Notes: generated from the sequence alone by a model not told the origin. A stretch of DNA of 64,000 nt from Candidatus Bathyarchaeota archaeon (GCA_963702095.1 OY969706.1:2009840-2073839); one strand, 5' to 3'. Counted from the stretch's first letter, positions 5,870-39,892 are shown. Translations and numbers: made by a program.

Positions 5870-6148
5870 TTAAGGTCCAAGTATTTTTTCTATCTCCGCT
5901 AAATGCTCCGCTACCTTTTTTCCCCTATCACTCAAGGAATATTTAGGTGCGCCTGACGACATGTCGATGTCTAAAAGCCCGTTTTCGTCTAGGAATTGTT
6001 TTGCCGAGTAGAAAGCCCTCTGACCTGAAGCAGAACTTTTTAGAATTTTTGTGGTTTTTGAGTTTGGATGCTTGTAGAGATATAAAATTAGCCTGTTAAC
6101 AGCAGTTAATTCATCGAATTCGTCGAATTTCATGCCGATTTCAGCCAT
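5870..6148 (-). CDS. Small winged-helix DNA-binding protein (putative transcriptional regulator)
   Basis: Internal Met start gives 'MAEIGMKFDEFDELTAVNRLILYLYKHPNSKTTKILK...KYSLSDRGKKVAEHL', a wHTH-like pattern. The ORF is open up to 6262. Confidence 0.5.
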   Translation of the reverse strand: MAEIGMKFDEFDELTAVNRLILYLYKHPNSKTTKILKSSASGQRAFYSAKQFLDENGLLDIDMSSGAPKYSLSDRGKKVAEHLAEIEKILGP

Positions 6149-6285
6149 TACAAGTTTATCGCAACCTTGTTCTTTTTGACTATTATCTTTTTGTATGCAT
6201 AGTGAGTATGCAATATGCACAAGACTTATATGTGAAAACGTGTGCAAATTGAATATGCACAAAACACATTAAAAATGGTGATACC

Positions 6286-6768
6286 TTGAAAAGAGAAAAA
6301 ACTAACCCACTCCCACAGGGGGATATAAAAAACTTAATCGACAAGTTGCCTGAAGAACTCAGGGCAAAATACAAAACGCAAGCGTGTGTGTGTTGTGATG
6401 TTGTTGAGTGTTTGAAGGTTGTGGCGGCGTTGAAGTTGTGGTGTGATCGTGGTTATCGGGAGGTGGAGTTTAGTGCGCCGTTGACGTGGGGTAGGAAAAA
6501 GTTTTTTGTTGATGTTTTGGCGAGGAAGGGGGATGGTGTGGTTGGGGTTGAGTGTATGCCGAGTCTCAATTTGGGGTGGTTGCGTGGGCGTATGGCGTTG
6601 TTGCGTCGCTGTTTGGGTCCAGACACTTATTTTGTTATTGTTTTTCCCTCAACGGTGGATAAGCGGGTTGATAAGGCGGCTTTTTTAGCTGACGAAGTAT
6701 GGGTCACCAGCGAGGACAACGACAAGGTGGCACGCACGATGTTTGTCTCGGTCTGCCATAAAGGATGA
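6286..6768 (+). CDS. Hypothetical protein, strongly G+T-skewed coding strand; possible nuclease-like core (weak)
   Basis: 160-aa ORF. 'FFVDVLARKGDGVVGVECMPS' is vaguely PD-(D/E)xK-like but lacks the Lys. Divergent from the wHTH gene. Confidence 0.4.
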   Translation: MKREKTNPLPQGDIKNLIDKLPEELRAKYKTQACVCCDVVECLKVVAALKLWCDRGYREVEFSAPLTWGRKKFFVDVLARKGDGVVGVECMPSLNLGWLRGRMALLRRCLGPDTYFVIVFPSTVDKRVDKAAFLADEVWVTSEDNDKVARTMFVSVCHKG

Positions 6769-6793
6769 AAATGCCAAACGCAGTCAAGCCTGT

Positions 6794-7423
6794 TTAGGTT
6801 AGGAGGTAGCTGCTGCCGAAGTAGCCCACATTCCTTGTCGCTGCTGAAGCTGTCTGTGAGCTGATGCAGACTTTGCCGATAAGCGACATCAACTGGTAGG
6901 AGGCTTTGAGGGCTAAGTTGAGGTTGTTGTTGGTTAAGAATTTGGCTTCGATGTTTAGTGCGGTGCCCTGTATGTTAGCGGCGACTTGTATTCCGCCATC
7001 CTCAGTGATCCACTTCAAGGTGACGCCTTGGTTGTTCTCGGATATGCCTAGCCAGCGGAGCATGCCGAACCATTTGCCACGGAGCTGTAAAATCAGCTGT
7101 TGGGTCATCAAGTCCGAGGGCAGATAGGTCTGTATAAGTGTCGTCGATGGGGTTTCGGTACGGGGCGGGGTGAGTTTGACTTCTGTGATTTTTGGGGTAA
7201 CCCGGTAGCCTTGGGGACCCTTTTTTATGATGCCTTCCTCTTCGAGGTGGCCCAGGATGCGGCTGAGGGTTTCGGGGTGTAGTCCTGTTCTGCGTTTCAG
7301 TCCGTCGAAGGTGAAGGTGGCGAAGTCTTCGGTTTCAATCAGTGCCAACACGTCTACGTCGCGTTCGCTAAGGGAGTAGTCGGTTGCTGCATTTTGCAGA
7401 TTAACGTTTAGAATAGGTACCAT
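6794..7423 (-). CDS. wHTH-domain protein with an uncharacterised C-terminal domain
   Basis: 'DVLALIETEDFATFTFDGLKRRTGLHPETLSRILGHLEEEGIIKKGPQGYRVT' is a classic winged-helix segment. Start chosen at the internal Met (MVPILNV); the ORF is open up to 7468. Confidence 0.6.
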   Translation of the reverse strand: MVPILNVNLQNAATDYSLSERDVDVLALIETEDFATFTFDGLKRRTGLHPETLSRILGHLEEEGIIKKGPQGYRVTPKITEVKLTPPRTETPSTTLIQTYLPSDLMTQQLILQLRGKWFGMLRWLGISENNQGVTLKWITEDGGIQVAANIQGTALNIEAKFLTNNNLNLALKASYQLMSLIGKVCISSQTASAATRNVGYFGSSYLLT

Positions 7424-7755
7424 TATTGTATGGATGGCTGGGATGTTGCTTTTGAAGGTTACCCACATTACCCAGGATTATCCATGGAAAAACAGGATTA
7501 AATTAAAAACTAATTGCTCAGCGAACCGAACGTCCAGCAATGGGCAAACTAGGAATCCAACTCGGGGATACAATGGCTGCTGGGCGTTGATTCGCCGAGC
7601 CTTACTCGCTTTTGGCTTTGCGATTCTCGGCAAACTATATGGTTGGTTGAGGGCTCTTAAGAGTTTCACAAATAATCTATATAGAGAAAAGATTCTACAT
7701 AGGAATTTCTTAACTTACTCCCATGAGAAAGTATAGTTGAGAGCGTGAATAGAAC

Positions 7756-7908
7756 TTGAAGGTTAAATGCATAGGCTGCGACCATAAATTCGAGGTTTAT
7801 CCTGAGAATTTTTCTAACCACGAAATAATTTTTTGTCCAGTATGCGGTTTAGACCATGAAGTAATCAAGAAAACCAGCCATGCCATAGTGGCGTCCCCCA
7901 TTTTATAG
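7756..7908 (+). CDS. Possible 50-aa zinc-ribbon protein (CxxC...CxxC), TTG start
   Basis: Own translation: LKVKCIGCDHKFEVYPENFSNHEIIFCPVCGLDHEVIKKTSHAIVASPIL. Two CxxC knuckles give a LysW-like topology. There is no ATG and only a weak RBS. Confidence 0.3.
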   Translation: MKVKCIGCDHKFEVYPENFSNHEIIFCPVCGLDHEVIKKTSHAIVASPIL

Positions 7909-7959
7909 CTGACAACGCAAGTCTTAAGGCTTTTAAACTCAAAATGCTAGTCTTGAGTT

Positions 7960-8487
7960 ATGAAAGAAGTCGAAGCCAAAATCTTAGAAATAAACAAAGA
8001 AAAAACCGTCAAAAACCTCACAGCATCCGGAGCGTCAAGAGTTTTTGACGGCGAAATATTAACCCTCTTTCTAGACTTCCCCGACAATCGAATCCACAAA
8101 AGAAGAGACGTTCTGAGGCTAAGAAAAGAGGGAGACAAATCAGAGTTAACATACAAAAAAATTGAAGAGAACAAAGCGGTTAAGCAAGCGCAAGAATACT
8201 CCGTGGAAATCTCCGACATAGAAACAACCCAAAATATTCTACAGAACCTCGGGTTGGGGGTGACACAGAAAATGGAGAAACATAGGCTCAGCTATAAAAT
8301 AGGGCACGTCCGCTTTGACATTGACCGCTATACTGGTGAATACCGATTTATTCCCGAATTTCTTGAGATTGAAGGGCCCGAGGAGGATATCAAAAAGTAC
8401 GCCAAGGTTTTGGGTTTCCAAGAAAAGGATTGTTTGCCTTGGTCCACAGACGAATTAATCCGTCATTATCAAGGTAAAAGGGTTTAG
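7960..8487 (+). CDS. CYTH-domain protein (triphosphate tunnel metalloenzyme; CyaB/inorganic triphosphatase-like)
   Basis: 175-aa ORF. N-terminal 'EVEAK' is the ExExK signature. 'VLRLRKEGDKSELTYKK' and 'FDIDRY...PEFLEIEG' are strands typical of CYTH. Confidence 0.85.
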   Translation: MKEVEAKILEINKEKTVKNLTASGASRVFDGEILTLFLDFPDNRIHKRRDVLRLRKEGDKSELTYKKIEENKAVKQAQEYSVEISDIETTQNILQNLGLGVTQKMEKHRLSYKIGHVRFDIDRYTGEYRFIPEFLEIEGPEEDIKKYAKVLGFQEKDCLPWSTDELIRHYQGKRV

Positions 8488-8945
8488 CGTTTGGCTTTGG
8501 GCGACTTGGGTTTGCGTGCTGGTGGTGATTTAACGATTTTTGCTGCTTGTTTAGGTTTAGCAGGTGACTTCTTAGAAGTATTCCACTTTGGGTATTCGCC
8601 GTGCTCTTTTTTGAAGTTCTCAAGCAGTTGTTCCTGAGTGGTCTTGGGTTTGTCGCTTAGCATCCAGCCGACTGCAACCTTTTCTATGAAGCCGTCGTCA
8701 AAAAGCAGGGAGTGGATTTTCCTGGTTGTTTTTCCGCCGTATCCAGCTAAGTAGCCGCCGAAGACTCTTTTTGTGGGTTTTTTGGATTTGCCGATGAAGA
8801 GTATGTCGGAGGATGGTTTGTCACTGACTGTAGAATCGATTAGCACTATAACGCTGTTTTTGTTGTAGGGCAGGCTTGTGATTGGTAGGCCTTTGAGGGG
8901 TAAGAATTCGGTGAAGCCATTTTCCTTTAGGTTCTGGGAGTTCAT
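8484..8945 (-). CDS. Hypothetical protein: GIY-YIG-like core (weak) with Lys/Pro-rich basic tail
   Basis: 153-aa ORF. 'VIVLIDS...ILFIGKSKKPTKRVFGGY...EQLLENFKKEHGEYPKWN' loosely follows the GIY...YIG...R...E...N spacing. The C-terminal tail 'KKSPAKPKQAAKIVKSPPARKPKSPKAKR' is SPKK-like. Confidence 0.45.
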   Translation of the reverse strand: MNSQNLKENGFTEFLPLKGLPITSLPYNKNSVIVLIDSTVSDKPSSDILFIGKSKKPTKRVFGGYLAGYGGKTTRKIHSLLFDDGFIEKVAVGWMLSDKPKTTQEQLLENFKKEHGEYPKWNTSKKSPAKPKQAAKIVKSPPARKPKSPKAKR

Positions 8946-9283: not shown

Positions 9284-11422
9284 TTGTCGACTAAATCCAA
9301 TTTCTATACTGAAGAAAACAGTGTTCTGCCCCAAGAGATTAACCTAGATAACCCAAGGTACTACATTAATAGGGAACTGAGTTGGGTAAGATTCAACGCC
9401 CGCATCCTAGAAGAAGCACGTGATGAATGGCACCCCGTACTTGAGAGAATCAAATTCATCGCTATATGCGGTAGCAACCTTGACGAGTTTTTCATGACAA
9501 GAGTCGCCAAGTTGATAAAGAAAAATAACAAGCGCTCTGAGGAAAAATCCATGGACGACACGACCGCTATGGAACAGATAAATGCCACCCGCCAAGAGAT
9601 TATTCCTTTGCTTGTGAAGCATGCGGATTGCTGGAAAAACGAGCTTGTGCCTGCTCTATCGAAAGAGGAGATATTTATTCGGCAGTTTAGCGAGTTGCCC
9701 GATAGCTCCAAAGAAAGTTTGCGGGAGTATTTTAAAACCGCTATCTTACCTGAAATGCAGGTTTACAAACCCGATTTTGACAGCGCATGTATAGAGAATC
9801 TACGGGTCTGCATATGCGTTGTCGGCTTTGGAGAGGATTCTTATAGGATTGTTGAGGTTCCAACTGAACATGTTGGCCGCTTAATTGGGTTTCCTCAAAG
9901 AACCTACAGGCAGGTTTTAGATGGCGAATTAGAGTTTGTATTTCTTGAAGACCTCATTTGTAATTGTTTAGACCTTGTTTTTCCAAACGAAAAAAGCATA
10001 GCAGGGTATCCTTTTCGGTTGACCCGTAACGGCGAGATAGAAATTCTTATGGATGAATCCTCTGACTTCATGAGTTCCATAAAGAAGGGGGTTTCCAGAA
10101 GGAAAACAGGGTTCCCCACCAGACTTGAATTCGACAAAAGAACGCCCTCAAAAGTCAGGGAAACAATAACAGCTCACTTTAATTTACCACCGTACTTGAT
10201 CTACGAGTTTGATGGACCACTAGGGCTTGTAGATTTATGGCAGCTACATAAGGTGAATCGCCCGGATTTGAAGGACAAAACGTTTCTTCCCTCAATTCTG
10301 CCGCTGCTGACTCCCAACGAGAACCTGTTTCAAACTATAGCGAAAAGGGATATTGTCCTCTATCATCCCTATGATGGGTTTGAAGTAATCATCGACCTGC
10401 TCAAGGAAGCAGCACAGGATAGGGGGGTTGAAAAAATATTCATCACAATGTATCGCATGGACCATAAATCCCCCATCGTTGATGCACTCATAGATGCAGT
10501 GAGAAACGGCAAAAAAGTAACCGCTATAGTTGAGTTGAAGGCAAAGTTTGATGAAGAAAACAATATTTTGCTGGTTTCTAAGTTTAGGGCGGCAGGCATC
10601 AACGTGGTTTACAATTTCCCTAACCTGAAAGTCCACGCTAAACTCTGTCTTATAGTTAGGAAAGAAAAGAAGAACATCGTCAGGTATTCACATATAGGGT
10701 CAGGCAACTATAACGCGGTAACCGCAAAAATCTACGGCGACATCGGGTACTTAACAGCTAACCATGACGTTGGAGTGGAGTTGGATGAGCTCTTCCACAT
10801 ATTGATTAATGGATTACAGGAAAAAGAGTTCAAGCATTTACTTGTTGCCCCAAGGTCTCTTAAAAATGAAATTCTTAGACGAATCGATAGGGAAATCGAG
10901 GTACACCGCAAAACCGGCAAAGGCTACCTCGCATTTAAACTGAACAACTTAGAAGAGAAAGATATCATAAAAGCGCTCTATAGGGCATCTATGGCGGGAA
11001 TTAAAGTGGACCTTAACGTGAGGGCTCTTTGCTGTCTACGACCAGGAATCAAAGGAGTCAGCGATAATATCTCGGTGATCTCCATTGTGGGCCGTTTCTT
11101 GGAGCATGCCCGCATGTACTTTTTCCAGAACGGCTACGACCATGAACTCTTAATCGGCAGTTCAGATATGATGTTCCGCAACCTCAACGAACGAGTGGAA
11201 GTTCTCTTTAGCGTTCCTGACCCCCAGATTCGATGCGCAATCCTCGAGGACATGCTGAAGATACACCTCAAAGATAACGTTAAAGCCAGAAAGCTCCTTT
11301 CTGATGGAACTTACGAAAAGGTTTTACCCAAAGAAGGCGAAAAAGGTCTAAATTCTCAGTTCTGGCTAATTCAAAACCGAGGCATCTGGCATGAATACGC
11401 AGCCTACATCTCAGATATGTGA
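9284..11422 (+). CDS. ppk1: Polyphosphate kinase 1
   Basis: 712-aa ORF. 'YINRELSWVRFNARILEEA' is the canonical PPK1 N-terminus. It has two PLD-like C-terminal domains ('KVHAKLCLIVR', 'RFLEHARMYFF'). TTG start. Confidence 0.95.
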   Translation: MSTKSNFYTEENSVLPQEINLDNPRYYINRELSWVRFNARILEEARDEWHPVLERIKFIAICGSNLDEFFMTRVAKLIKKNNKRSEEKSMDDTTAMEQINATRQEIIPLLVKHADCWKNELVPALSKEEIFIRQFSELPDSSKESLREYFKTAILPEMQVYKPDFDSACIENLRVCICVVGFGEDSYRIVEVPTEHVGRLIGFPQRTYRQVLDGELEFVFLEDLICNCLDLVFPNEKSIAGYPFRLTRNGEIEILMDESSDFMSSIKKGVSRRKTGFPTRLEFDKRTPSKVRETITAHFNLPPYLIYEFDGPLGLVDLWQLHKVNRPDLKDKTFLPSILPLLTPNENLFQTIAKRDIVLYHPYDGFEVIIDLLKEAAQDRGVEKIFITMYRMDHKSPIVDALIDAVRNGKKVTAIVELKAKFDEENNILLVSKFRAAGINVVYNFPNLKVHAKLCLIVRKEKKNIVRYSHIGSGNYNAVTAKIYGDIGYLTANHDVGVELDELFHILINGLQEKEFKHLLVAPRSLKNEILRRIDREIEVHRKTGKGYLAFKLNNLEEKDIIKALYRASMAGIKVDLNVRALCCLRPGIKGVSDNISVISIVGRFLEHARMYFFQNGYDHELLIGSSDMMFRNLNERVEVLFSVPDPQIRCAILEDMLKIHLKDNVKARKLLSDGTYEKVLPKEGEKGLNSQFWLIQNRGIWHEYAAYISDM

Positions 11423-13724
11423 GTTAAACAGGAGTTACTGCAGATTCGGAACGGAAACACTGCTTAAACTTCTCGACGGCGTCGACAACTTAATCGATGG
11501 AGTCGTAGAGAATGTTGATATTGAATGTGTCCATAAAACCCGTGTTGCTTCCCGTCGATTAAGGGCGGCTCTGCCTCTGTTTAGCGCCTGTTTTGACAAA
11601 AAAGACTACAAAGACTGGACAAAGGAAATCAAGAAAGTCACTAAACTGCTTTCCCAAGCAAGAGACCTTGACGTCCAAATCGCCTTTATCGAACAATACC
11701 TAAAAAAACTCAGCTCAGCGGAAGAGAAAGCAGGCATTAATGTGCTACTTAAGGACCATAAAAGCTGTCGAAAAAACATCCAATCCCAGGTCGATTCAGG
11801 GCTAAAAGAACTAAAAGACTGCAGCACCCTCGGCGATGTGGAGCATAACTGCAAGGACATACTTGCTCAAGAGCTAAACCAACCCTTTGACCCCGCTCAA
11901 GTGCTGGAAAAAGCCCACTGGCACATATCCTATAGACTGGATGATTTTCTGTCGATGGCAGCCTACGTTTATGTGGAGAAAGAAAAATCAAAGCATCACC
12001 AGATGAGGATTTATGCTAAGAAGCTACGTTACACGATGGAGTGCTTTGCTCCTCTCTATCCAGATAAGCTCAATGGTGAAATAGAAACCATAAAAAACTT
12101 CCAAGATGTCCTAGGCGAAATGCATGACTGCGACGTCTGGACCGATTACATCCCCCAATTTAACAGAAAAATACAGGGAAAAACAAAACTTCCAAAGGGC
12201 ACAAATAAACAAAAAATCAATCAAGCCCTCCATAACTTCCAAACCTACGTAGTAGACCGCAGAAAGAACTACTACAACCAGTTCATTAAACTCTGGGAGG
12301 AAAAAGAAGAAAACGGTTTTTTTGATAAACTAAGGGAAAAAACTGGGCGACACTATATGGCGTTAACTCAAGAGAGAATAAAAAAAGCGCTCAGGGACCC
12401 TAACGTGAAAATCGCGTTGATATCTGACGTCCATGCTAACCTGCAAGCTCTGGAGAAAGTGTTTGAAGACGCAATGAGCCGTGGAGCCAACGTTTTTCTC
12501 AATGCAGGCGACTCAATCGGTTTCGGCGCTAACCCCAACGAAGTGATAAAGTTGCTTTGTGAAAGAGGCGTCTTAAGCATCATGGGCAACTATGACTTAG
12601 AAGTGTTAGAGGGTAAAAGTGATGCTAAAGCAGAAAAAAAGGCAGCTTACAAATTTGCCAAAAAAGAACTGTCACAGTCAGCGAACTGTTATCTTCAGTC
12701 TTTGCCGCATGAACTCCGCCTTGAAGCAGTAGGACAGAAACTTTTCGTTACCCATGGAAGCCCCGAATCCATCGAAGAACACATTTACCAAGATACTCCG
12801 CCACAGCGTCTTGAAGTTTTTGCGGCTGTCGCCCAAGCAGACATCATTGTCGGGGGGCATTCGCATGAGCAGTTTCAGCGGACAACAAACGGAACCTGCT
12901 TTGTGAATCCGGGGAGCGTGGGCAGACCCGGCGACGGCAACCCTCAGGCCGGCTACGCTCTCCTCACCTTCAACCCCCTCAATATTGAATTGGTCAGGGT
13001 GGATTATGATGTTTGGGCTGCTGCAGACGCACTTAGAAAAGAGGGGCTGCCGGAGAGTTTTGCACAGATGCTTCTGTATGGAGTATCCCTTGATGTTATA
13101 ACAAAGGAAGATCATGCTAAAGCTGGCTTTTCTGAGGCAGACTGCACAAGGGCGGTGGATGCATCAGGTAAGTTTTCGCGGGAACTATGGCCGGACGTTG
13201 ACCATTATAAACAGGTAACTAATCTTGCGTTAGGCTTGTTTGATGGGCTGGCTAAATTGCACAAGTTGGGTAAGCGGGAGCGTTGCTGGTTGGAATGCGC
13301 CGCCATATTACATGATGTCGGCTTGTCAAAAAACAGCGGTAAACACCACAAAAGCTCGATGCAAATCATCTTAAACAGCACCCAACTGCCGTTTCCATCC
13401 ATGGATAGAAGGGTAATCGCAAGCATCGCCCGATACCACCGCAAGGCAATGCCGAAACAAAAGCACTACAATTTAACTACTTTAAACCGCGCCACAATCC
13501 ATAAAATCTGTATTTTATCGAGTCTTCTGCGTTTGGCAGACAGTCTTGATTACACTCATGAATCCGCCGTTAAACTGTTAGGCATCAAAGTTGGGACCAA
13601 AAAAGTAACTGTTGAATGCGTTTCTAAGACGGATTTTGCACTGGAAGAGCAGGCGTTTATTAAGAAGAAGGACTTGTTTGAAAAAGTCTTTAATAGAAAA
13701 ACGATGCTGGTATGGAAACAGTGA
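11391..13724 (+). CDS. Three-module fusion: CHAD domain, calcineurin-like metallophosphoesterase and Ppx-C-terminal-type HD domain
   Basis: 777-aa ORF.
- CHAD helices: 'VHKTRVASRRLRAALPLF' and 'HHQMRIYAKKLRYTMECF'.
- Metallophosphoesterase motifs: 'ISDVHAN', 'NAGDSIGFG', 'MGNYD', 'THGSP', 'GGHSHEQF'.
- C-terminal HD module: 'AAILHDVGL...HHKSS...ARYHRKAMPK'.
The start overlaps the ppk1 end by 32 nt and the stop overlaps the ppx start by 13 nt. Confidence 0.85.
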   Translation: MNTQPTSQICELNRSYCRFGTETLLKLLDGVDNLIDGVVENVDIECVHKTRVASRRLRAALPLFSACFDKKDYKDWTKEIKKVTKLLSQARDLDVQIAFIEQYLKKLSSAEEKAGINVLLKDHKSCRKNIQSQVDSGLKELKDCSTLGDVEHNCKDILAQELNQPFDPAQVLEKAHWHISYRLDDFLSMAAYVYVEKEKSKHHQMRIYAKKLRYTMECFAPLYPDKLNGEIETIKNFQDVLGEMHDCDVWTDYIPQFNRKIQGKTKLPKGTNKQKINQALHNFQTYVVDRRKNYYNQFIKLWEEKEENGFFDKLREKTGRHYMALTQERIKKALRDPNVKIALISDVHANLQALEKVFEDAMSRGANVFLNAGDSIGFGANPNEVIKLLCERGVLSIMGNYDLEVLEGKSDAKAEKKAAYKFAKKELSQSANCYLQSLPHELRLEAVGQKLFVTHGSPESIEEHIYQDTPPQRLEVFAAVAQADIIVGGHSHEQFQRTTNGTCFVNPGSVGRPGDGNPQAGYALLTFNPLNIELVRVDYDVWAAADALRKEGLPESFAQMLLYGVSLDVITKEDHAKAGFSEADCTRAVDASGKFSRELWPDVDHYKQVTNLALGLFDGLAKLHKLGKRERCWLECAAILHDVGLSKNSGKHHKSSMQIILNSTQLPFPSMDRRVIASIARYHRKAMPKQKHYNLTTLNRATIHKICILSSLLRLADSLDYTHESAVKLLGIKVGTKKVTVECVSKTDFALEEQAFIKKKDLFEKVFNRKTMLVWKQ

Positions 13725-15289
13725 AAACCGCAGAACGTGTCGTGGGATTCATTGATATCGGCACAAACGCCGTACGACTTCTAGTGGTTAGGATAAACCC
13801 AAACCTTTCTTACACGATAATAAGCCAAGAGAAAGAAGTAGTGAGGCTAGGCGAACAGGAATTCAAAGATTGCATTCTAAGACCTGACGCTAAGGAAAGA
13901 GCTATTTTCGTATGCGGTAAATTCGCTGCGCTAGCTAGAACCTACGGTGCAGACGAAATCGTTTCGGTTGGAACTTCAGCGATTAGGGAAGCCATAAACA
14001 GAGACGAATTTCTTGGGGAACTTAAAGCGAAAACTGGGTTAGAAGTTAAGGTTATTTCGGGGCAAGAGGAAGCAAGGCTCATCTGGTTGGGCGTATCCAG
14101 CGGGATAGACATCGGCGACCAAAAAGCGTTGTTCATAGATTTAGGCGGAGGCAGCACTGAAATTGCAATCGCAAATCAAAACGAATGCTTCTACATCAAC
14201 AGCCTCCGCTTGGGTGCAATCCGTTTGACTTCACAGTTTATCGGTGAAGGCTGGACTGGACCCATAAGCGCCGAAACATACAAGCAAATCCGGAACTACT
14301 CCTGCAACAAAATAAACATCGTAAAATCCCGAGTTCTACAATACGGTGTCAGGTTAGCGTGGGGTTCTTCTGGGACGATGATTAATCTGGCAGAGGTTTC
14401 GAATAAACTGTTCAAGAAAACTGCCGGCGAAAAGGAACTGGTATTGTCCAGAAAGAACCTCAAAAAATTGGCCACTGTGCTTTGTTGGCTGCCCCTTGAG
14501 GAACGAAGAAAAGTACCAGCCATCAACCCTGACCGCGCAGATATTATTATCGCTGGAGCCGCGATAATCGAAGCGGTTATGGAACAGTTTGGACTCGAAG
14601 AAATAAACATCAGCCACCGAGAACTCCGAGACGGCCTACTGGTTGACTACCTCTCCAAGTATGAAGGCTTTAGGCAACTTCAAAAAACCCCTATGAGAAA
14701 CCGCAGCATTTTGCATTTGGGGAGATCATGCAATTTCGATGAGAAACACGCTGAAACAGTCACTACATTGGCTTTACAGCTTTTTGACAGTGCAAAACAG
14801 GTTGGTTTACATCGCATGGGCGAAAAAGAAAGAGAACTGCTAAAACACGCGGCTACTCTCCATGACGTCGGCGACTTTCTCTCCTTCAACAATCACCATC
14901 TCCACTCACACTACATCATCAGTAACGCGGGGCTCCCAGGCTTCGATAAGGAAGAAATCCAAATCATTGCTAACATCGCCCGTTTCCACAGAAAAAAGTT
15001 GCCTTCCAAGAAAGCCCTAAAATATGAGGGGCTCGACGAGGAAAACAAAGACACTGTGGCGTTACTATCTACGTTTTTGAGGTTTGCTGAAAAACTTGAT
15101 CGAAGCCACTGTGGGTTGGTGAAGAAAGCAGAGTTTGTCAAGGTCAATAAAGACCAAGTGCTTCTTAGGTTCTATTCAGACACGGATTGTAGCCTTGAAG
15201 AGTGGAGTATCATCCAGAATCGGCAGGCGTTTTTCGAAGCGTTCGAGAAGCAGTTGGAAGCGCAATGCATCGAAACCCCCAGCAAATAG
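13712..15289 (+). CDS. ppx: Exopolyphosphatase, Ppx/GppA family
   Basis: 525-aa ORF. ASKHA motifs 'FIDIGTNAVRLLV' and 'FIDLGGGSTEI'. C-terminal HD domain 'AATLHDVGDF...ARFHRKKLP'. Confidence 0.92.
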   Translation: METVKTAERVVGFIDIGTNAVRLLVVRINPNLSYTIISQEKEVVRLGEQEFKDCILRPDAKERAIFVCGKFAALARTYGADEIVSVGTSAIREAINRDEFLGELKAKTGLEVKVISGQEEARLIWLGVSSGIDIGDQKALFIDLGGGSTEIAIANQNECFYINSLRLGAIRLTSQFIGEGWTGPISAETYKQIRNYSCNKINIVKSRVLQYGVRLAWGSSGTMINLAEVSNKLFKKTAGEKELVLSRKNLKKLATVLCWLPLEERRKVPAINPDRADIIIAGAAIIEAVMEQFGLEEINISHRELRDGLLVDYLSKYEGFRQLQKTPMRNRSILHLGRSCNFDEKHAETVTTLALQLFDSAKQVGLHRMGEKERELLKHAATLHDVGDFLSFNNHHLHSHYIISNAGLPGFDKEEIQIIANIARFHRKKLPSKKALKYEGLDEENKDTVALLSTFLRFAEKLDRSHCGLVKKAEFVKVNKDQVLLRFYSDTDCSLEEWSIIQNRQAFFEAFEKQLEAQCIETPSK

Positions 15290-15537: not shown

Positions 15538-16440
15538 TCACTCTTTTTCCAGTTCCGCCTTAGCTTTAGACAACTCTTTCCGTTGCGCATCAGACACAGA
15601 AGGATACTTCAAGTCTAGTTTCTGTATTTGAGTAACGATGATTTCGGAGATAAGGGCATGCGTCACCCATTTTTTGTCTGCGGGAATAATGTACCAAGAA
15701 GCCCACTCAGTGCTGGTTCTGCTTAGCATTTCCCCGTATGCCTGCTGGTACTGCTGCCACTTGGAGCGTTCAGAGAGGTCTGCTAAAGAGAATTTCCAGT
15801 ATTTATCTGGGTTTTCTAGGCGTTTTAGTAAGCGGTCTTTCTGTTTCTTCTCTGAAATATGCAAGAAAAACTTGAGTACCACCGTGCCGTTTCGGATTAG
15901 ATGTCGTTCGAAGCAGTTTATGTCTTCATAGCGTTGACCCCAAAAGGCTTCACCATCGGCATGAGGCGGCAACTTGTTTTTTTCTAAAACTTCAGGACGA
16001 ACCTTCACGACCAAGACGTCTTCGTAGTAAGAGCGGTTAAAGATTCCGATGCGTCCCCTCTCTGGGAGGGCTTTTTGGTGTCGCCAAAGAAAATCATGGT
16101 CAAGTTCCTCCTCACTGGGGGTTTTAAAGCTTGTTACCTCGCATCCCTGCGGATTAACCCCAGACATAACATGGCGGATGGTGCTGTCTTTGCCTGCGGC
16201 ATCCATGCCCTGCAGAATAATCAACATTGCGTAGTTATCGCTGGCCCAAAGCAGCTCCTGTTCGTTTATTAGTTTTTGACGGTTTTCCGCAAGGACCGCT
16301 GTCGCGTGTTGTTTTACGGTTTTTTTGTGTTTTTCCTCTCTAACCCACTTCGGAGCCCAGTTTGAGGGGTAAGTTTTCAAGTCTACTTTTTTGCCGACTG
16401 GCACTTTAAAGTCTTCAGGGTGCATTGACATTAAAACCAA
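15538..16440 (-). CDS. ppk2: Polyphosphate kinase 2 family (polyP:nucleotide phosphotransferase), single-domain
   Basis: 300-aa ORF. P-loop 'ILQGMDAAGKDSTIRHV', plus 'FNRSYYEDVLVVKV' and 'KFFLHISEKKQKDRLLKR', typical of PPK2. Confidence 0.92.
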   Translation of the reverse strand: MVLMSMHPEDFKVPVGKKVDLKTYPSNWAPKWVREEKHKKTVKQHATAVLAENRQKLINEQELLWASDNYAMLIILQGMDAAGKDSTIRHVMSGVNPQGCEVTSFKTPSEEELDHDFLWRHQKALPERGRIGIFNRSYYEDVLVVKVRPEVLEKNKLPPHADGEAFWGQRYEDINCFERHLIRNGTVVLKFFLHISEKKQKDRLLKRLENPDKYWKFSLADLSERSKWQQYQQAYGEMLSRTSTEWASWYIIPADKKWVTHALISEIIVTQIQKLDLKYPSVSDAQRKELSKAKAELEKE

Positions 16441-16630: not shown

Positions 16631-18208
16631 ATGCTTGGAGAGAGGAGTCCCACAATGGTTGAAAAGCCTGCATTCACCGGTGAAAAGAAAGCCAGCGGTG
16701 ACAGTGCCAATTGCCATTCAGTCAGCAGCCAAAACATCCACCAGGGCTTATTCGTGCATATGAACGATGGATTCGCATACTGCAAAGTAATCTTTGACCA
16801 ATCAGGCAACCCCATAGACTACGTTTTCTGTGAAGTAAACAAAGCTTTTCGACAGATAACCAAGATATGTGACAGACCTATAATCGGGGAAAAAACCACC
16901 GAGGTCTACCCTTGGTCAAAGACAGAAGCGTCTGAATGGATAAAAATATGCGGCACAATCGCTCAAACAGGAAAAAGCATGATGTTTGAGGGACAATGCA
17001 AATCGTTGAATCGATGGTTTGCAGTTAACGCTTACTGCCCAGAAAAAGGCTATGTCGCCATGATAATCAAGGACATCTCTGGGCGCAAAAAAACGGAGCA
17101 GGCGCTGAGGCAGAGCGAAAGGCAATATAAGAAACTCGCTAACAGCATAACTGACCCCTTTTTCGCTTTGGATTCCTGTTTAAAGTTCACTTACTGGAAT
17201 AAAGCAAGCGAAAAAAGCATGGGAATCAAAAGCGCAGATACGCTGGGGAAACATTTCTTTGATGTTTTCGGCCGAACTAGAGCTACCCGCAAAGCCTCCA
17301 GCGTCTACCTTGATGTTATGCGGACAAAGTGCCCCCGGACCATTATTGACCGGCTTCCTAAAGCCGAAGCTGAAACAGTGTTTGAAATCGAAGTGTCCCC
17401 CACCGGCAACGGCATTTCAGTGTTAGCTAAAGATATCACGGAACGTAAGAAAAAGCAAATTATCATGGAGGAATATGCTAAGCGGCTTGAGGAACTGGTG
17501 AAGGTTCGCACGGAGAAGTTGAAAAATGCTGAGCGGTTAGCTGCGATTGGTGAAACTGCAGGCATGATTGGTCATGACATCCGCAATCCGCTACAATCCA
17601 TAATCGGTGAATTGTATCTGGCAAAAGATGAGTTAAGTGATCTAGCGGATTTAGGGGCAAAAGAGAGATTGCTCGACAGCCTCGACCACATCGAAGAACA
17701 AACGCTCTACATCAACAAGATTGTGGCGGACCTTCAGGATTTCGCTAAACCCCTAACCCCCGTCACCACAGAAACCGACCTTGAACAAATAGTTAAAGCG
17801 GTAATGCGGGAGTTAGAAGTGCCAGCCAACGTTAAAGCCGCGTATTCGGTTACCAAGCCCTTTCCACTCCTCAAAACCGACCCCTCGTTTATCAAACGCA
17901 TCCTCACAAACTTGGTTCGCAACGGCATACAAGCCATGGATGAATACGGAGGCGAATTGTCGGTGAATGCTTTTCCAAGAGATGGTTCAGTTATACTGGC
18001 AGTTTCAGATACTGGCGCAGGTATCCCTGATGCAGTTAAGGAAAAACTGTTCAAACCCCTGTTTACAACCAAGTCAAAGGGGCAGGGTTTTGGGTTGCCT
18101 GTGGTGAAAAAACTAGTTGAGGCGTTAGAGGGAAACGTGAGTTTTGAAACTCAAGTGGGTAAGGGCACAACTTTTGTTGTTGAATTGCCCTTGAAACGGA
18201 AGGTTTAG
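16631..18208 (+). CDS. PAS-domain sensor histidine kinase (no response regulator nearby)
   Basis: 525-aa ORF with two PAS-like segments. H-box 'GHDIRNPLQSI', N-box 'LVRNGIQAM', G1 'VSDTGAGIP', G2 'GQGFGLPVVKKLVE'. Confidence 0.85.
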   Translation: MLGERSPTMVEKPAFTGEKKASGDSANCHSVSSQNIHQGLFVHMNDGFAYCKVIFDQSGNPIDYVFCEVNKAFRQITKICDRPIIGEKTTEVYPWSKTEASEWIKICGTIAQTGKSMMFEGQCKSLNRWFAVNAYCPEKGYVAMIIKDISGRKKTEQALRQSERQYKKLANSITDPFFALDSCLKFTYWNKASEKSMGIKSADTLGKHFFDVFGRTRATRKASSVYLDVMRTKCPRTIIDRLPKAEAETVFEIEVSPTGNGISVLAKDITERKKKQIIMEEYAKRLEELVKVRTEKLKNAERLAAIGETAGMIGHDIRNPLQSIIGELYLAKDELSDLADLGAKERLLDSLDHIEEQTLYINKIVADLQDFAKPLTPVTTETDLEQIVKAVMRELEVPANVKAAYSVTKPFPLLKTDPSFIKRILTNLVRNGIQAMDEYGGELSVNAFPRDGSVILAVSDTGAGIPDAVKEKLFKPLFTTKSKGQGFGLPVVKKLVEALEGNVSFETQVGKGTTFVVELPLKRKV

Positions 18209-18848
18209 CCTAGGCTGACTTTCTCGCCTGTAACAATGTAGATGATGGATTCACAGACGTAAACCGCGTGGTCTGCAATGCGCTCGAGATATCGGCTGAC
18301 CAGTAAGCTCGATATGATGCATTTGTAGTTTGGCGTCTCATGGTCGATTAGTCTAGTTGAAAGTCTAGGTACATTTTATCGACTTCTCGTTCTATTGGGC
18401 AGATGGTTCTTGCATGAACCAAGTCGTGTTTACGCAACGAGTCTATGCTGATTCTCACCATGGTGAGCACTTTCTGACTCATTTCTGCAAGGTAATCCCT
18501 TGTTGCCTCATCACATGGGTTAAGTCCGCTTAATTGATCATTAATTGAGGAAATGTCAAGTGCGTATCTGCCATACCTTGCGAAGTCGTTGCCGATTTTC
18601 ATGTAAGATTTTATGGCGCGTAAATCCGAGGCAACTGGCTGATAACGTGCAATCAACTCAAAGGTTTTATCTTCCACTTTATCAGCCATCACAACAAGCA
18701 TGTCGGACATTTCTCGCACTTGGGCTTGGACGCTTTTGCCTTCCAAGTATCCATGTATAGACACCGATAAGGCTTCATACGTTAAATCCCCCATGCGAGT
18801 CAGCAATACGGACTGTTCTTCTAATCCTTTGTCGATTATTCTACTCAT
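18205..18848 (-). pseudogene. phoU: PhoU phosphate-signalling regulator interrupted by a 1-nt frameshift
   Basis: The ORF 18348-18848 (166 aa) carries PhoU repeat 1 ('ARYQPVASDLRAIKSYMKIGNDFARYG'). The missing end of repeat 2, 'LIDHETPNYKCIISSLLVSRYLERIADHAVYVCESIIYIVTGEKVSLG*', is read in another frame from 18351 down to the stop at 18205-18207. The two frames overlap only between 18348 and 18377, which contains a TTTT run at 18374-18377. Confidence 0.75.
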
Positions 18849-18860
18849 CTAACTGGTCCC

Positions 18861-19634
18861 TTATCCGAATTCTCCTGTTATGTACTTCTCAGTTAATTGG
18901 TTTTTCGGAGACTCAAAAATCTCTTTCGTAGAACCATACTCGATTAAAGAGCCCAAGTATAAGAAGGCGGTGTAATCGGATACTCGGGAAGCTTGCTGCA
19001 TGTTATGGGTAACGATGACAACAGTATAGTTTTTCTTTAATTCAACGACTAAACGTTCAATCTTTGAAGAGGCAATAGGGTCCAAAGCAGAGGTAGGTTC
19101 ATCCATCAAGATAACTTCGGGCGCCAAGGCAATTGCACGGGCAATACACAAGCGTTGTTGCTGCCCGCCTGAAATGCTTGTACCCGGTTTCTTGAGGTCA
19201 TCTTTGACTTCCTCCCAAAGGGTTGCTTGTTGCAGGCTATGTTTGACAACTTCGTCAAGGTTCTTTCCTTTTCTTGCGCCTGTTAATTTTAAACCTGCTG
19301 CAACATTGTCATAAATGGACATGGTGGGAAAGGGGTTTGGTTTTTGGAAAACCATGCCAACTCGCCTCCGTATCATTACTGCATCAACGTTTGGAGCGTA
19401 AATGTTTTCGCCATCCAAGAGTACCTGCCCAGACATCTTGGCACCGGGGACTAATTCATGCATTCGGTTGAGAATGCGGATAAAAGTAGATTTGCCGCAT
19501 CCTGAAGGGCCAATTAACGCGGTAACTGCGTTGGTTATGATTGGTACGTTTATGTCTTTGAGGGCTTGCTTTGTTCCAAACCAAGCGTTCAATCCTATGC
19601 TTTGCATTTTAATGTTTTCTGAGTCATACGTCAT
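18861..19634 (-). CDS. pstB: Phosphate ABC transporter ATP-binding protein
   Basis: 257 aa. Walker A 'GPSGCGKST', signature 'SGGQQQRL', Walker B '[11 protein letters not shown]'. PstB-typical 'FQKPNPFP'. Confidence 0.95.
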
Positions 19635-20500
19635 CTTGCTACTCCTCCATATCGATCTCTAGTGGCTAATCTAACGCCTACGTTAAGAGCCAATACTATT
19701 AAAATCAACACTAACGATGCACCCCAAGCTTGAGCTTGTGTTTCTAAGGAGGGCATTCTTGAATCATAGAAAATTCTAAGGGGCAATGCATCCATCGGCG
19801 AACTGAGTCCTTGAAAGAAGAAACTACTGCCCAGAATCGTAAGCAGTATGGGCGCGGTTTCTCCTGCGATTCTTGCGACCGCAAGTAATGTTCCGGTAAC
19901 TAAGCCGCCTTTTGCTGAAGGTATTACTATGCTAAGGATGGTTCGCCATCGGTGGACGCCTAAAGCCATTGATGCTTCACGCACGCTGGTGGGTACAAGT
20001 TTGAGGGATTCCTCAGTTGTTCTTGCCACAATGGGAATCATCATGAAAGAAAGTGCGATGGCTCCAGCAATCGGTGAGAAGCCCATGCGTATTAAACCCA
20101 CAACAATTAAGCTGTAAGCTGTGATGCCAACGATTATTGAGGGAAACTCTGTTAATATGTCGTTGATTGTCCGCATCCAGGTGGCATACTTGTTATTTCC
20201 GTATTCAGCAAGGTATACGCCGGATAATACACCGAGCGGAATTCCTATGAGGCTGGTTAAACCCAAAAGAATTAAAGTTCCCTGAATAGCTGGTCCAATA
20301 CCCCCCTGTAATCCGTTAGCAGTTAAAAAGTGCAGGTTAATTACGGGAGCACCTCGGGCTATTACTTCAAAGAGGATACTTAACAGAGGCACAATTGCAA
20401 TTAGGACGCAGAGGAGACAGAGCACGTAGAAGAACTTGTTCCTGAATTTGCGAAAGTGATAGTTGTCAAGTTTTATTTTTTGGAGGATACGGTTTGCCAT
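19631..20500 (-). CDS. pstA: Phosphate ABC transporter permease PstA
   Basis: 289 aa, polytopic, with EAA-like loop '[14 protein letters not shown]'. Its start overlaps the pstC stop and its end overlaps the pstB start. Confidence 0.9.
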
Positions 20501-21435
20501 TACTCTACAGCGCCTCCTTTTACTTTCAGAACACGAGTAACCATTACATGAGCTATGACGTTTATGATTAAACTGATTGCAAGCAGAACTAATCCTGCAG
20601 CGATGTATGCTGAACCTTCAATTGGTGATTGGGAATCGAAGAAGCCGTTGGCTATCAATGAAGGCAAAGTTTGGCCTGGCTGAAACAGTGTAGTGGGCAT
20701 AGCGGCTGGACCTGTGGCGTTGCCTATTACCATGGTTACAGCCATAGTTTCACCTACTGCTCGGCCTAAACCGAGAATGACTGCTCCGAAGATTCCAGAG
20801 CGTCCATAGCTGAGAACCCAATGTCGGATAACTTCCCATTTTGTAGCTCCAATGCTGTAGGCGCCTTCTCTAATCGAGTCTGGAACTGCAGCGATGACTT
20901 CTCGAGAGACTGAAGCAACTGTGGGAATAATCATTATGGATAGAATCAAGCCTGCAGTTAGGAAATCTAAGCCGAAGGGAGTTCCGCTGAATATGGGAAT
21001 CCATCCGAGGTAGGTGTTGAGGGGAATTTCAATGTAGTCTAAGACCCAAAAACGCAGAACAAACAAGCCCCAGAGCCCAAAAATAACACTGGGTACGGCT
21101 GCAAGCATCTCTACCAGGTAGGAAAAGGGAACTTTCACGAATTTAGGAGCCATCTCTACAATAAAAATGGCGATTCCTATGCTTAAGGGTACACCGATTA
21201 ATAGAGCGATTCCGGATGTTATGAGTGTACCAAGAATGTAGGGCAGAACCCCAAAAGATGCAATACCAGGATTCCAGTTTATCCCTGTTAAGAATCTAAC
21301 TCCAAATTCGCTTAGAGCTAAGGTTGATCCGGAAACTAGGACATAAGTATTCAAGATAAAGACGACGGCGGCTGATGCGGCGATTACTGCGACCAATATC
21401 TGGAAGACTTTATCGCCAGTTAGCTTACGCGTCAT
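20500..21435 (-). CDS. pstC: Phosphate ABC transporter permease PstC
   Basis: 311 aa, polytopic, with EAA-like loop 'EGAYSIGATKWEVI'. Operon position is between pstS and pstA. Confidence 0.9.
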   Translation of the reverse strand: MTRKLTGDKVFQILVAVIAASAAVVFILNTYVLVSGSTLALSEFGVRFLTGINWNPGIASFGVLPYILGTLITSGIALLIGVPLSIGIAIFIVEMAPKFVKVPFSYLVEMLAAVPSVIFGLWGLFVLRFWVLDYIEIPLNTYLGWIPIFSGTPFGLDFLTAGLILSIMIIPTVASVSREVIAAVPDSIREGAYSIGATKWEVIRHWVLSYGRSGIFGAVILGLGRAVGETMAVTMVIGNATGPAAMPTTLFQPGQTLPSLIANGFFDSQSPIEGSAYIAAGLVLLAISLIINVIAHVMVTRVLKVKGGAVE

Positions 21436-21510
21436 ACAAATCTGCCTGAGTTTTTAAACTTGAAAGAAAAAAAAGGTTTTGGAGTTTGATTCGTCATATC
21501 ATCGTCGCAT

Positions 21511-22605
21511 TTAATGGGTCGGTATGGCTTGTCCGTTGAAAGTTATTGAGTTAAGCGTTGCTTCGTCGATCTGAACTAGGTTTGAGGGAAGCGTTGCATA
21601 TTCTAGTGAAGGCGCAAGTTGCTGACCGTCATGCACTACATACCACATGTATTGCACAATTGCTGTTGCTTTGTCTATTGTCATGCCATCGACTACGCCG
21701 AGGTCTTTGTATATCAACATGTATGTTGGAGTCACAATTGGGTAGGCTTGAGCACCCGAGGTGTTGAGTATGGAAACATCTGCCCAACTGTCACTTCCAG
21801 ACGGAAGGGAACTTGGAAGCGCTTGAGCTGCTGCTGTTGTTGAGTCCAGTGTGGGGAGAATATAGTTGCCCGCTGGGTTTTGGATTGCTGCCACGGTTAC
21901 GTCGTTTTGTAAGGCGTAGGCTAATTCGATGTATCCGATGGCATAGTCTGTTGTGGTGACTGTCGCTGCAACGGCTGAGTTGCCGCTTTGACCTGTTCCG
22001 ACTGGCCATTGAACAGTGGTGTTTGCTCCGACGTGTGTACTCCATGTGTTACTGACTAGTGAGAGGTATTTTGTGAACCAGTTGGTTGTTCCTGAACCGT
22101 CTGATCTGTGTACAACAGCTATGGAGTGGTGTGGTAACGTCAAGTCTGGGTTGAGCGCTACGATAGCTGGGTCATCCCACGTTGTTATTGTGCCAAGGAA
22201 GATGTTAGCGATTACAGGACCTGAGAGTTTTAGACCGGAGTCAATACCGGGTAGGTTGTAAGCGACTGTGATTGCACCGATGGTTTCTGGGATGTGGACG
22301 GTGTCAGGCGCTGCTGCTCTCTGAGAAGCAGACAAGGGCGCGTCTGAACATGCGAAGTCAACGACTTTGTTTGTGAGGTCGCTGACACCTTTGCCGCTGC
22401 CGCCACCTTGATAGTTAATTTGTACATTTGGTTTCATGGAAGAGTATTCGGTTATTGTTGCATTAAGGAATGGCTGGGGGAAAGTTGCGCCTGAAGCGGT
22501 TAAAGCGATTGTGGGAGTGCTTGGGGTTGATAGATAGACGTATGCTGCTACACCGCCGATTATTATTACGATTGCGACTATTGCTAATATGATTGAAGTC
22601 TTCAA
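21511..22605 (-). CDS. pstS: Phosphate-binding protein PstS (membrane-anchored)
   Basis: 364 aa. N-terminal TM anchor, then 'YQGGGSGKGV' and 'VHRSDGSGTT', typical PstS phosphate-binding loops. TTG start preceded by a GTGAGGA SD-like motif. Confidence 0.9.
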   Translation of the reverse strand: MKTSIILAIVAIVIIIGGVAAYVYLSTPSTPTIALTASGATFPQPFLNATITEYSSMKPNVQINYQGGGSGKGVSDLTNKVVDFACSDAPLSASQRAAAPDTVHIPETIGAITVAYNLPGIDSGLKLSGPVIANIFLGTITTWDDPAIVALNPDLTLPHHSIAVVHRSDGSGTTNWFTKYLSLVSNTWSTHVGANTTVQWPVGTGQSGNSAVAATVTTTDYAIGYIELAYALQNDVTVAAIQNPAGNYILPTLDSTTAAAQALPSSLPSGSDSWADVSILNTSGAQAYPIVTPTYMLIYKDLGVVDGMTIDKATAIVQYMWYVVHDGQQLAPSLEYATLPSNLVQIDEATLNSITFNGQAIPTH

Positions 22606-38321: not shown

Positions 38322-39810
<1,489 letters not shown>

Positions 39811-39892
39811 TTATGCACTCCGATGTGATTTGTCGGATCTTTTGTTTTTTGTGTGGTACGAATATATTGACACATTTCCTCGCATTCTCTAA

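Follow-up and report, generated by a model that had tools for sequence, protein, structure and literature searches.

A CHAD-metallophosphoesterase-PPX-tail fusion encoded between ppk1 and ppx in Bathyarchaeia, a candidate polyphosphate-tethered polyphosphatase

The fusion gene and its three modules

We present here an analysis of a gene lying between ppk1 and ppx in a stretch of 64,000 nucleotides from a Candidatus Bathyarchaeota archaeon (GCA_963702095.1, OY969706.1:2009840-2073839), the whole of which is called the window below. The gene, at 11391-13724 on the plus strand, is an uninterrupted open reading frame (ORF) that starts with ATG and has 777 codons and a stop, and its product joins a CHAD domain, a calcineurin-like metallophosphoesterase (MPE) domain and a tail related to the C-terminal half of exopolyphosphatase (PPX). 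A first-pass annotation, made from the DNA alone, had described a single unbroken frame of 777 amino acids (aa) containing three modules of these kinds, its first 32 nt shared with ppk1 and its last 13 nt with ppx. On the whole this description is confirmed: the translation runs without a stop, both overlaps have the same values when recomputed from the gene coordinates (11422-11391+1 and 13724-13712+1), and in a Pfam scan of the protein CHAD, Metallophos_2 and Ppx-GppA_III together with HD all exceed their curated cut-offs. Were ppx to start instead at the in-frame GTG at 13721, it would share only 4 nt (GTGA) with the fusion gene. A Shine-Dalgarno-like GAGG is located 8 nt upstream of the ATG of the fusion gene; scans for sigma-70 promoters and terminators remain at the level of shuffled sequence, the sigma-70 model being inappropriate for an archaeon.

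An AlphaFold2 (AF2) model of the protein, built on a 25-sequence alignment with a mean predicted local distance difference test score (pLDDT) of 82 and a predicted template modelling score (pTM) of 0.58, consists of an all-helical part (residues 14-335), an alpha/beta part (340-565), a helical linker (567-599), a second helical part (603-718) and a beta-beta-alpha-beta unit (729-776). Each part was matched separately against the PDB with Foldseek, and profile and sequence searches of the PDB sequences agree with the assignments obtained in this way.

For the N-terminal part, Pfam CHAD (PF05235) covers residues 28-252 (E 4.7e-42, 145 bits against a cut-off of 25.6), the PDB CHAD chains 3e0s and 6qv7 match residues 28-315 in the profile search, and Foldseek pairs the N-terminus with the long CHAD of Chlorobium (CtCHAD, 6qv7) and its polyphosphate (polyP) complex 6qva, with template modelling (TM) scores of 0.73-0.76. 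The long helices of the AF2 model fall into the pairs 70-106/110-143 and 228-262/273-307. Two CHAD-type signatures had been noticed at first, and both are real (residues 47-64 and 202-219), with the motifs H48-x2-R51-x3-R55-x2-R58 and H203-x2-R206-x3-K210-x2-R213; however, on the model and the fold matches they are the pseudo-symmetric four-helix-bundle halves of one long, pore-type CHAD. Two separate CHAD domains are ruled out in favour of a single CHAD of ~320 aa with internal twofold symmetry (Pfam, AF2, Foldseek, and PMC6537752). CHAD domains bind polyP, and a central pore for threading the polymer, made by protruding helices, is found in the long ones (~300 aa) but not in the short (PMC6537752). 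The His, Arg and Lys residues of CHAD are invariant or nearly so in the 25-member family alignment; in the 50%-identity clusters of the family described below, H48, R51, R55, R58, R91, H203, R206, K210, R213 and H245 are invariant wherever the position is aligned, and the profile matches make the protein a member of the CHAD family.

The middle part is matched by Metallophos_2 over residues 340-527 (E 3.5e-24) and by PDB entry 3rqz over residues 338-565 (E 6e-30), and Foldseek recovers an alpha/beta sandwich fold shared with SapH/Spr1479 (3qfm) and the uncharacterised 2gju, 1nnw and 3rqz, with TM scores of 0.76-0.79. SapH, which the PDB title of 3qfm names 'asymmetric Ap4A hydrolase and phosphodiesterase', has an identity of ~25% to the domain, and the trypanosomal Ap4A hydrolase 2qjc is also found by the PDB search. 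The NCBIfam model of the YfcE family, TIGR00040, gives a borderline score (56.5 bits against a cut-off of 56.25), and the match to 1su1, a YfcE of solved structure, is far weaker than those to 3rqz and SapH. The protein belongs to the calcineurin-like MPE superfamily, and within it to the SapH/3rqz group. Homologues in the databases, where named, are called 'YfcE family phosphodiesterase', 'putative phosphoesterase' or 'CHAD domain-containing protein', and the first of these generic names, used in many genomes, is corrected by the domain analysis. The calcineurin-like family is characterized by five motifs, DxH, GD, GNH(D/E), H and GHxH. The first-pass annotation had reported the full set, which is indeed present as D346-x-H348, G373-D374, G399-N400-Y-D402, H455 and G489-H490-x-H492, with intact and conserved metal ligands and with Tyr or Phe for the His of motif III. 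D346, H348, D374, N400 (with D402), H455, H490 and H492 are invariant or nearly so in the 25-member family alignment, and among the 50%-identity clusters the ligands are kept in 38-39 of 39, 43-50 of 51 and 21-23 of 25 in three architectures.

The tail is matched by Pfam Ppx-GppA_III (PF21447) over residues 602-748 (E 1e-17, 65 bits) and by Pfam HD (PF01966) over residues 604-721 (E 2.3e-7, 31.6 bits against a cut-off of 22). The PPX of Deinococcus radiodurans (8jgo) matches it with E 4.5e-21, Foldseek pairs the C-terminus with the C-terminal fragment of Yersinia PPX (3rf0, TM 0.74) and also with 2flo, and in BLASTP the C-terminal 172 residues are 37% identical to the adjacent PPX over residues 343-514 of its 525 (E 3e-28). 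The last unit is formed in the AF2 model by the strands 729-734, 738-744 and 770-776 and the helix 750-767. The identity to this region of the adjacent PPX shows that the tail corresponds to PPX domains III and IV, and a generic stand-alone HD hydrolase is ruled out by the PDB matches, the 37% identity and Foldseek. The earlier view of an HD module resembling the C-terminus of Ppx/GppA thus holds as far as the Ppx-GppA_III and HD matches go, but it is the whole C-terminal half of PPX, and not an HD domain alone, that is present.

The conserved residues of the tail, H605, H641-D642, H652, R681-Y-H683-R-K, R714, D717 and D720, are invariant in all architecture classes, and the HD-type set among them (H605, H641-D642, H652, H683, D717 and D720) is invariant or nearly so in the 25-member alignment. 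The equivalent residues H346, H384-D385, H395, H426, E460 and D463 are invariant in 72 canonical PPXs (the product of the window ppx, 13712-15289, and 71 PPX ORFs of related loci), with Glu replacing D717. The PPX tails of Acinetobacter and Yersinia have HE and are without the Asp residues, and that of Deinococcus has HE but keeps the Asp. Because the HD residues are common to the neighbouring PPXs, the intact pattern is a general property of the PPX-tail clade and no proof of a second enzyme. Accordingly, of the two phosphohydrolase activities supposed in the first-pass annotation, one is backed by the intact MPE site, while the other is not established, its HD part being a PPX tail with residues common to the 72 PPXs. 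The complete HD-type set in domain III of archaeal PPXs also raises the question whether domain III there binds metal or acts. Concerning the origin of the tail, its bit scores have medians of 122-143 against the tails of accessory proteins (MPE-tail, CHAD-tail and fusion) and 95 against the tails of neighbouring PPXs. As the tail is closer to the former, the comparison suggests an old paralogue of PPX domains III-IV, and a recent local duplication of the 3' half of the adjacent ppx is not supported.

In addition, the cysteines C10, C17, C67, C154, C632 and C636 are invariant or nearly so across the family. A C-x6-C pair lies within the first 17 residues, partly encoded in the ppk1 overlap, and C632/C636 are those of ERCWLEC in the tail. 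A metal site, a disulfide and redox control are possibilities for these residues.

Table 1. Parts of the fusion gene and other features of the window
Feature	Coordinates	Strand	Evidence and remarks
CHAD-MPE-PPX(III-IV) fusion gene, whole	11391..13724	+	ORF and Pfam; 777 aa
Long (pore-type) CHAD, residues ~12-335	11424..12395	+	Pfam, PDB profiles, AF2, Foldseek
MPE domain, residues ~338-565	12402..13085	+	Pfam, TIGR00040, PDB 3rqz, Foldseek
Helical linker, residues ~566-599	13086..13187	+	AF2 helices 567-577, 580-583, 585-599; lower pLDDT, 55-64
PPX domain III-like (HD-fold) module, residues ~600-725	13188..13565	+	Pfam, 8jgo, adjacent PPX
PPX domain IV-like beta-beta-alpha-beta unit, residues ~726-777	13566..13721	+	AF2, BLASTP, Foldseek
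ppk1, complete PPK1 with all four domains	9284..11422	+	Pfam/NCBIfam
ppx, complete Ppx/GppA: ASKHA domains I-II and domains III-IV	13712..15289	+	Pfam/NCBIfam; PF02541 199 bits
ppk2-family kinase, convergent with ppx	15538..16440	-	Pfam PPK2 E 3e-62; TIGR03709 360 bits
Stand-alone CYTH (triphosphate tunnel metalloenzyme) gene, 0.8 kb upstream of ppk1	7960..8487	+	Pfam CYTH E 1.6e-16
phoU-pstB-pstA-pstC-pstS (high-affinity phosphate uptake)	18348..22605	-	Pfam PhoU, ABC_tran, BPD_transp_1 x2, PBP_like_2
PAS sensor histidine kinase, adjoining ppk2	16631-18208		
AbrB/MazE-PhoU fusion protein	22744-23793		
ORF of 153 aa, divergent, upstream of ppk1	8484-8945	-	No Pfam match
Complete archaeal 16S rRNA gene	38322-39811	-	1489 bits

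Distribution of the family and the ppk1-ppx slot

In a protein search the full-length homologues, 745-810 aa long and 55-87% identical, number more than 120; all have the same three domains and are collinear over 100% of the length, and a 100%-identical protein (P0001) is encoded on a contig of 2.94 Mb. The named homologues come from metagenome-assembled genomes (MAGs) of Bathyarchaeia/Nitrososphaerota. A scan of one genome per GTDB species gives at least 481 relatives confirmed by tblastn, and the best 75 loci, taken for analysis, are almost all from Bathyarchaeia. Full-length matches at 35-37% identity extend to Methanomassiliicoccaceae and to two MAGs, one of 'Altiarchaeia' and one of Planctomycetaceae. 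The first-pass annotation had not recognised the architecture as a described enzyme, and our searches of the full-text literature on CHAD with metallophosphoesterase or polyP, on archaeal polyP and on Bathyarchaeia likewise find no paper describing it or the MPE-tail family. The architecture is nevertheless a common one, present in at least some hundreds of GTDB species, so that the fusion protein is common, generically annotated and uncharacterised.

Beyond the full-length fusion, a hidden Markov model (HMM) search of 1.84 billion cluster representatives gives 2,434 hits at E<1e-30. Of the 50%-identity clusters, the top 150 were classified by domain HMMs, and conservation was followed over 147 representatives, split by architecture. 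Among these top hits, CHAD-MPE-tail accounts for 39 clusters, MPE-tail (~430-480 aa) for 51, CHAD-tail (~500-560 aa) for 32 and CHAD-MPE for 25.

The position of the gene is conserved as well. In ~65 of the 75 loci, down to 35-37% identity and including Methanomassiliicoccaceae, the fusion gene comes after ppk1 and before ppx, in most cases with a ppk2 that converges on ppx. The overlap of ppk1 with the fusion gene is kept in 56 loci, with a length of 5-146 nt (mode 17); in 54 of these the projected start is an ATG, and the boundary of fusion and ppx is overlapping or abutting throughout the related loci. Other loci show the modules in different combinations: ppk1, CHAD (336 aa), MPE-tail (457 aa) and ppx follow one another with 4-nt overlaps in a split variant; CYTH, ppk1, CHAD-MPE, a separate tail (203 aa) and ppx are in line in a related locus; and in a bacterial contig MPE-tail lies behind ppk1 and faces a convergent ppx. 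Since the modules are separate neighbouring genes elsewhere, the window protein is a Rosetta-stone fusion, and the ppk1-ppx slot hosts a combinatorial cassette of CHAD, MPE and tail. The split and the bacterial loci show that the MPE-tail core goes with polyP genes also where no CHAD is fused to it.

In some Bathyarchaeia the fusion gene is present twice, the copy between ppk1 and ppx being accompanied by a paralogue of ~50% identity downstream of ppk2 (302-2628 and 6001-8334 in locus L035; 103-2437 and 6001-7980 in L059). In both loci the ppk1-ppx copy is recovered as two tblastn pieces, which may reflect frameshifts. In L049 the only copy is downstream of ppk2 (5890-8187), and ppk1 and ppx are directly adjacent.

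In the window, the three genes belong to a phosphate island that comprises CYTH, ppk1, fusion, ppx, ppk2, the PAS kinase, phoU-pstBACS and AbrB/MazE-PhoU (Table 1). The arrangement of CYTH before ppk1 is also seen in the related locus L080. Bacterial CYTH is usually fused to CHAD; in the window CHAD is fused to partners other than CYTH. A PAS kinase next to ppk2 occurs in a subset of the related loci only (L001, L004, L005, L023, L032 and L072), and an ORF with the length and position of the divergent 153-aa ORF is present in L081 (621-1082, minus strand), which suggests a conserved gene of the polyP locus. No 23S or 5S rRNA is detected anywhere in the 64-kb window, so that the rRNA genes are apparently unlinked, and ARAGORN finds no tRNA in the whole window.

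A proposed function and its alternatives

Prokaryotic polyP turnover is usually explained by PPK1/PPK2 together with the exo-acting PPX, and for archaea the enzymology of polyP is described as largely uncharacterised (PMC12995831). A role of the fusion protein on polyP, already supposed in the first-pass annotation, is strongly implied by the conserved operon context and the conserved basic residues of CHAD. We propose that the protein is most likely a polyP-tethered polyphosphatase with the MPE as its catalytic unit, the best-supported reading, to which we give about an even chance. The N-terminal long CHAD would use its basic pore and patches to attach to polyP, as chains or in granules, and would supply affinity, possibly also processivity; in ygiF, CHAD enhances the activity of the fused polyphosphatase (PMC6537752). 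The tail, as a paralogue of PPX III-IV, may act as in PPX, holding or guiding the chain and/or mediating dimerisation, and the dinuclear-metal site of the MPE would cleave phosphoanhydride bonds. The architecture could then be seen as a PPX that has an MPE in place of its ASKHA head (domains I-II) and carries a CHAD anchor in addition; MPE-tail proteins would be PPXs with a non-homologous catalytic head, to which Bathyarchaeia would also have fused the CHAD gene of the operon. The overlapping genes, if translationally coupled, would lead to production in a fixed ratio with PPK1 and PPX. Among solved MPEs whose activity is named, SapH is the nearest, and its being a phosphoanhydride (Ap4A) hydrolase counts for this proposal. 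As a canonical exo-acting PPX is always encoded nearby, the activity of the fusion protein is probably complementary rather than redundant, either endo-cleavage or the processing of short chains or ends. Endo-cleavage is attractive because yeast Ppn2, a Zn-dependent member of the metallophosphatase superfamily, is an exclusive endopolyphosphatase (PMC7381174). A bolder version, which we regard as speculative and put at about one chance in four, would see the family and its MPE-tail relatives as a dedicated prokaryotic endopolyphosphatase that arose by a head swap of PPX and acts on granule polyP in a stoichiometric PPK1-fusion-PPX machine, where the intact HD-type site might add a second catalytic or a metal-dependent function of domain III.

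Several points weigh against a polyphosphatase of this kind. SapH reportedly acts on Ap4A, ATP and diesters, and enzymes of the SapH type take nucleotides, not polyP, as substrates. The motif III of the family, GN(Y/F)D, departs from the GNHD of 3rqz, the closest solved homologue. The relative geometry of the domains in the AF2 model, and hence the orientation of the CHAD pore towards the MPE site, is uncertain at a pTM of 0.58. Furthermore, CHAD-tail proteins without MPE occupy the same slot in some loci (ppk1, CHAD-tail, ppx and a convergent ppk2), so that some lineages do without the MPE, and the conserved core could consist of CHAD and tail.

The protein might be a scaffold or regulator, in which CHAD anchors it to the granule, the tail pairs with PPX (its tail or head) or PPK1 in order to recruit or gate it, and the MPE is an accessory or regulatory phosphatase, for instance on a phospho-enzyme intermediate. 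The MPE-less proteins in the same slot would fit such a role, as would the tight gene overlaps, which suggest stoichiometric co-production, and the origin of the tail, whose paralogue in PPX touches the N-terminal domains and gives the dimer its shape (PMC11234463); other archaea have phosphohistidine phosphatases (SixA) along with ppx and CHAD genes (PMC12995831). We nevertheless consider it improbable, since the invariant catalytic set of the MPE argues for a real enzyme, and in any case a scaffold is compatible with a polyphosphatase and does not exclude it. The nearness of the MPE to SapH and its match to the trypanosomal Ap4A hydrolase 2qjc, together with a PPK2-family nucleotide kinase encoded nearby, would rather recommend a granule-recruited hydrolase of nucleotide polyphosphates or small phosphoanhydrides (Ap4A, p4A/p5A, ATP, P3), clearing the side-products of PPK1/PPK2. 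Such an enzyme is hard to reconcile with two of the three modules, since both CHAD and the PPX tail are devices for binding a polymer. The gene moreover lies between those of a polymer synthase and a polymer exo-hydrolase, and the identity to SapH is only ~25%; the probability of this alternative seems to us low.

A bifunctional enzyme is equally doubtful in our view. Here both the MPE and the HD-fold module would be active, for example one on internal polyP bonds and the other on ends, short oligophosphates or a nucleotide polyphosphate. It is in accordance with this that the module passes the Pfam HD model, that the HD-type set is invariant in all 39+32+51 clusters with the module, even in CHAD-tail proteins having no other catalytic domain, and that the clade is less degenerate than the Acinetobacter and Yersinia tails. 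However, the same residues, with Glu for D717, are invariant in the 72 neighbouring PPXs, where catalysis belongs to domains 1-2 and the C-terminal tail is the non-catalytic part (PMC11234463). Our literature searches on PPX domain III find no report of an activity, and the conservation could reflect metal- or phosphate-dependent binding of the chain. Finally, split versions of the same modules in other organisms might raise the suspicion that separate CHAD, MPE and tail genes were joined by an artefact of assembly or annotation. This is refuted, and its chance is negligible, because many assemblies, multi-megabase contigs among them, yield independent full-length homologues, over 120 in all, and because the domain junctions are free of stops and frameshifts.

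Whatever its substrate, the fusion gene is a third conserved and apparently catalytic partner between ppk1 and ppx in a major archaeal lineage of sediment and soil, with split or reduced forms elsewhere. If it does encode an MPE-type, possibly endo-acting, polyphosphatase, it would represent a new enzyme class in prokaryotic polyP metabolism and a natural case of the replacement of a catalytic head by a non-homologous one on a conserved polymer-handling tail, and it would offer a defined test of the contributions of CHAD and PPX III-IV. The proposal lends itself to testing and bears on the polyP metabolism of archaea, of which little is known, though it is not conceptually startling.

Comparison with known systems

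The long exopolyphosphatases of the Ppx/GppA family (1u6z/2flo from E. coli, 8jgo from D. radiodurans and the PPX of the window) are homologous to the fusion tail in their C-terminal half, with the pattern H..HD..H..(Y/F)HRK..D in common. They combine a catalytic head with a polyP-handling tail, as the fusion protein would, and are likewise encoded beside ppk1. The fusion protein, in contrast, is without the ASKHA domains I-II, has an MPE in their stead and has gained an N-terminal CHAD. Pfam gives no match to PF02541, the model of these domains, in the 777-aa protein, against 199 bits in the neighbouring PPX. As the defining domains are absent, the fusion protein is not a member of Ppx/GppA, though the tail is shared.

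In the literature CHAD proteins are either stand-alone or fused to triphosphate tunnel metalloenzymes (TTMs). The stand-alone 'phosins' of ppk/ppx operons hold the same position beside ppk1 and ppx, and the split relatives described above carry such a CHAD gene, of 336 aa; the CHAD of the fusion protein differs in being covalently joined to two more modules. The TTM/CYTH-CHAD short-chain polyphosphatases of the E. coli ygiF type are likewise phosphohydrolases fused to CHAD, but in the fusion protein the catalytic domain would be an MPE and not the CYTH tunnel, CHAD is N-terminal, long and of the pore-forming kind, and a PPX tail is added. Pfam finds no CYTH domain in the 777 aa, the CYTH of the window being a separate gene, and by its domain content the fusion protein is not a CYTH-CHAD enzyme.

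As for the MPE itself, SapH/Spr1479 (3qfm) and the ~250-aa 3rqz, 1nnw and 2gju have the same fold, length, metal ligands and C-terminal 'GLPE' helix. They are, however, stand-alone proteins, and motif III, GNYD here, is GNHD in 3rqz and GNWE in SapH. Yeast vacuolar Ppn2, and Ppn1, are enzymes of the metallophosphatase superfamily that cleave polyP, showing that the fold can be a polyphosphatase; they belong to another MPE family, are eukaryotic and vacuolar, and have neither CHAD nor PPX tail; the comparison with the fusion protein is one at the level of the superfamily.

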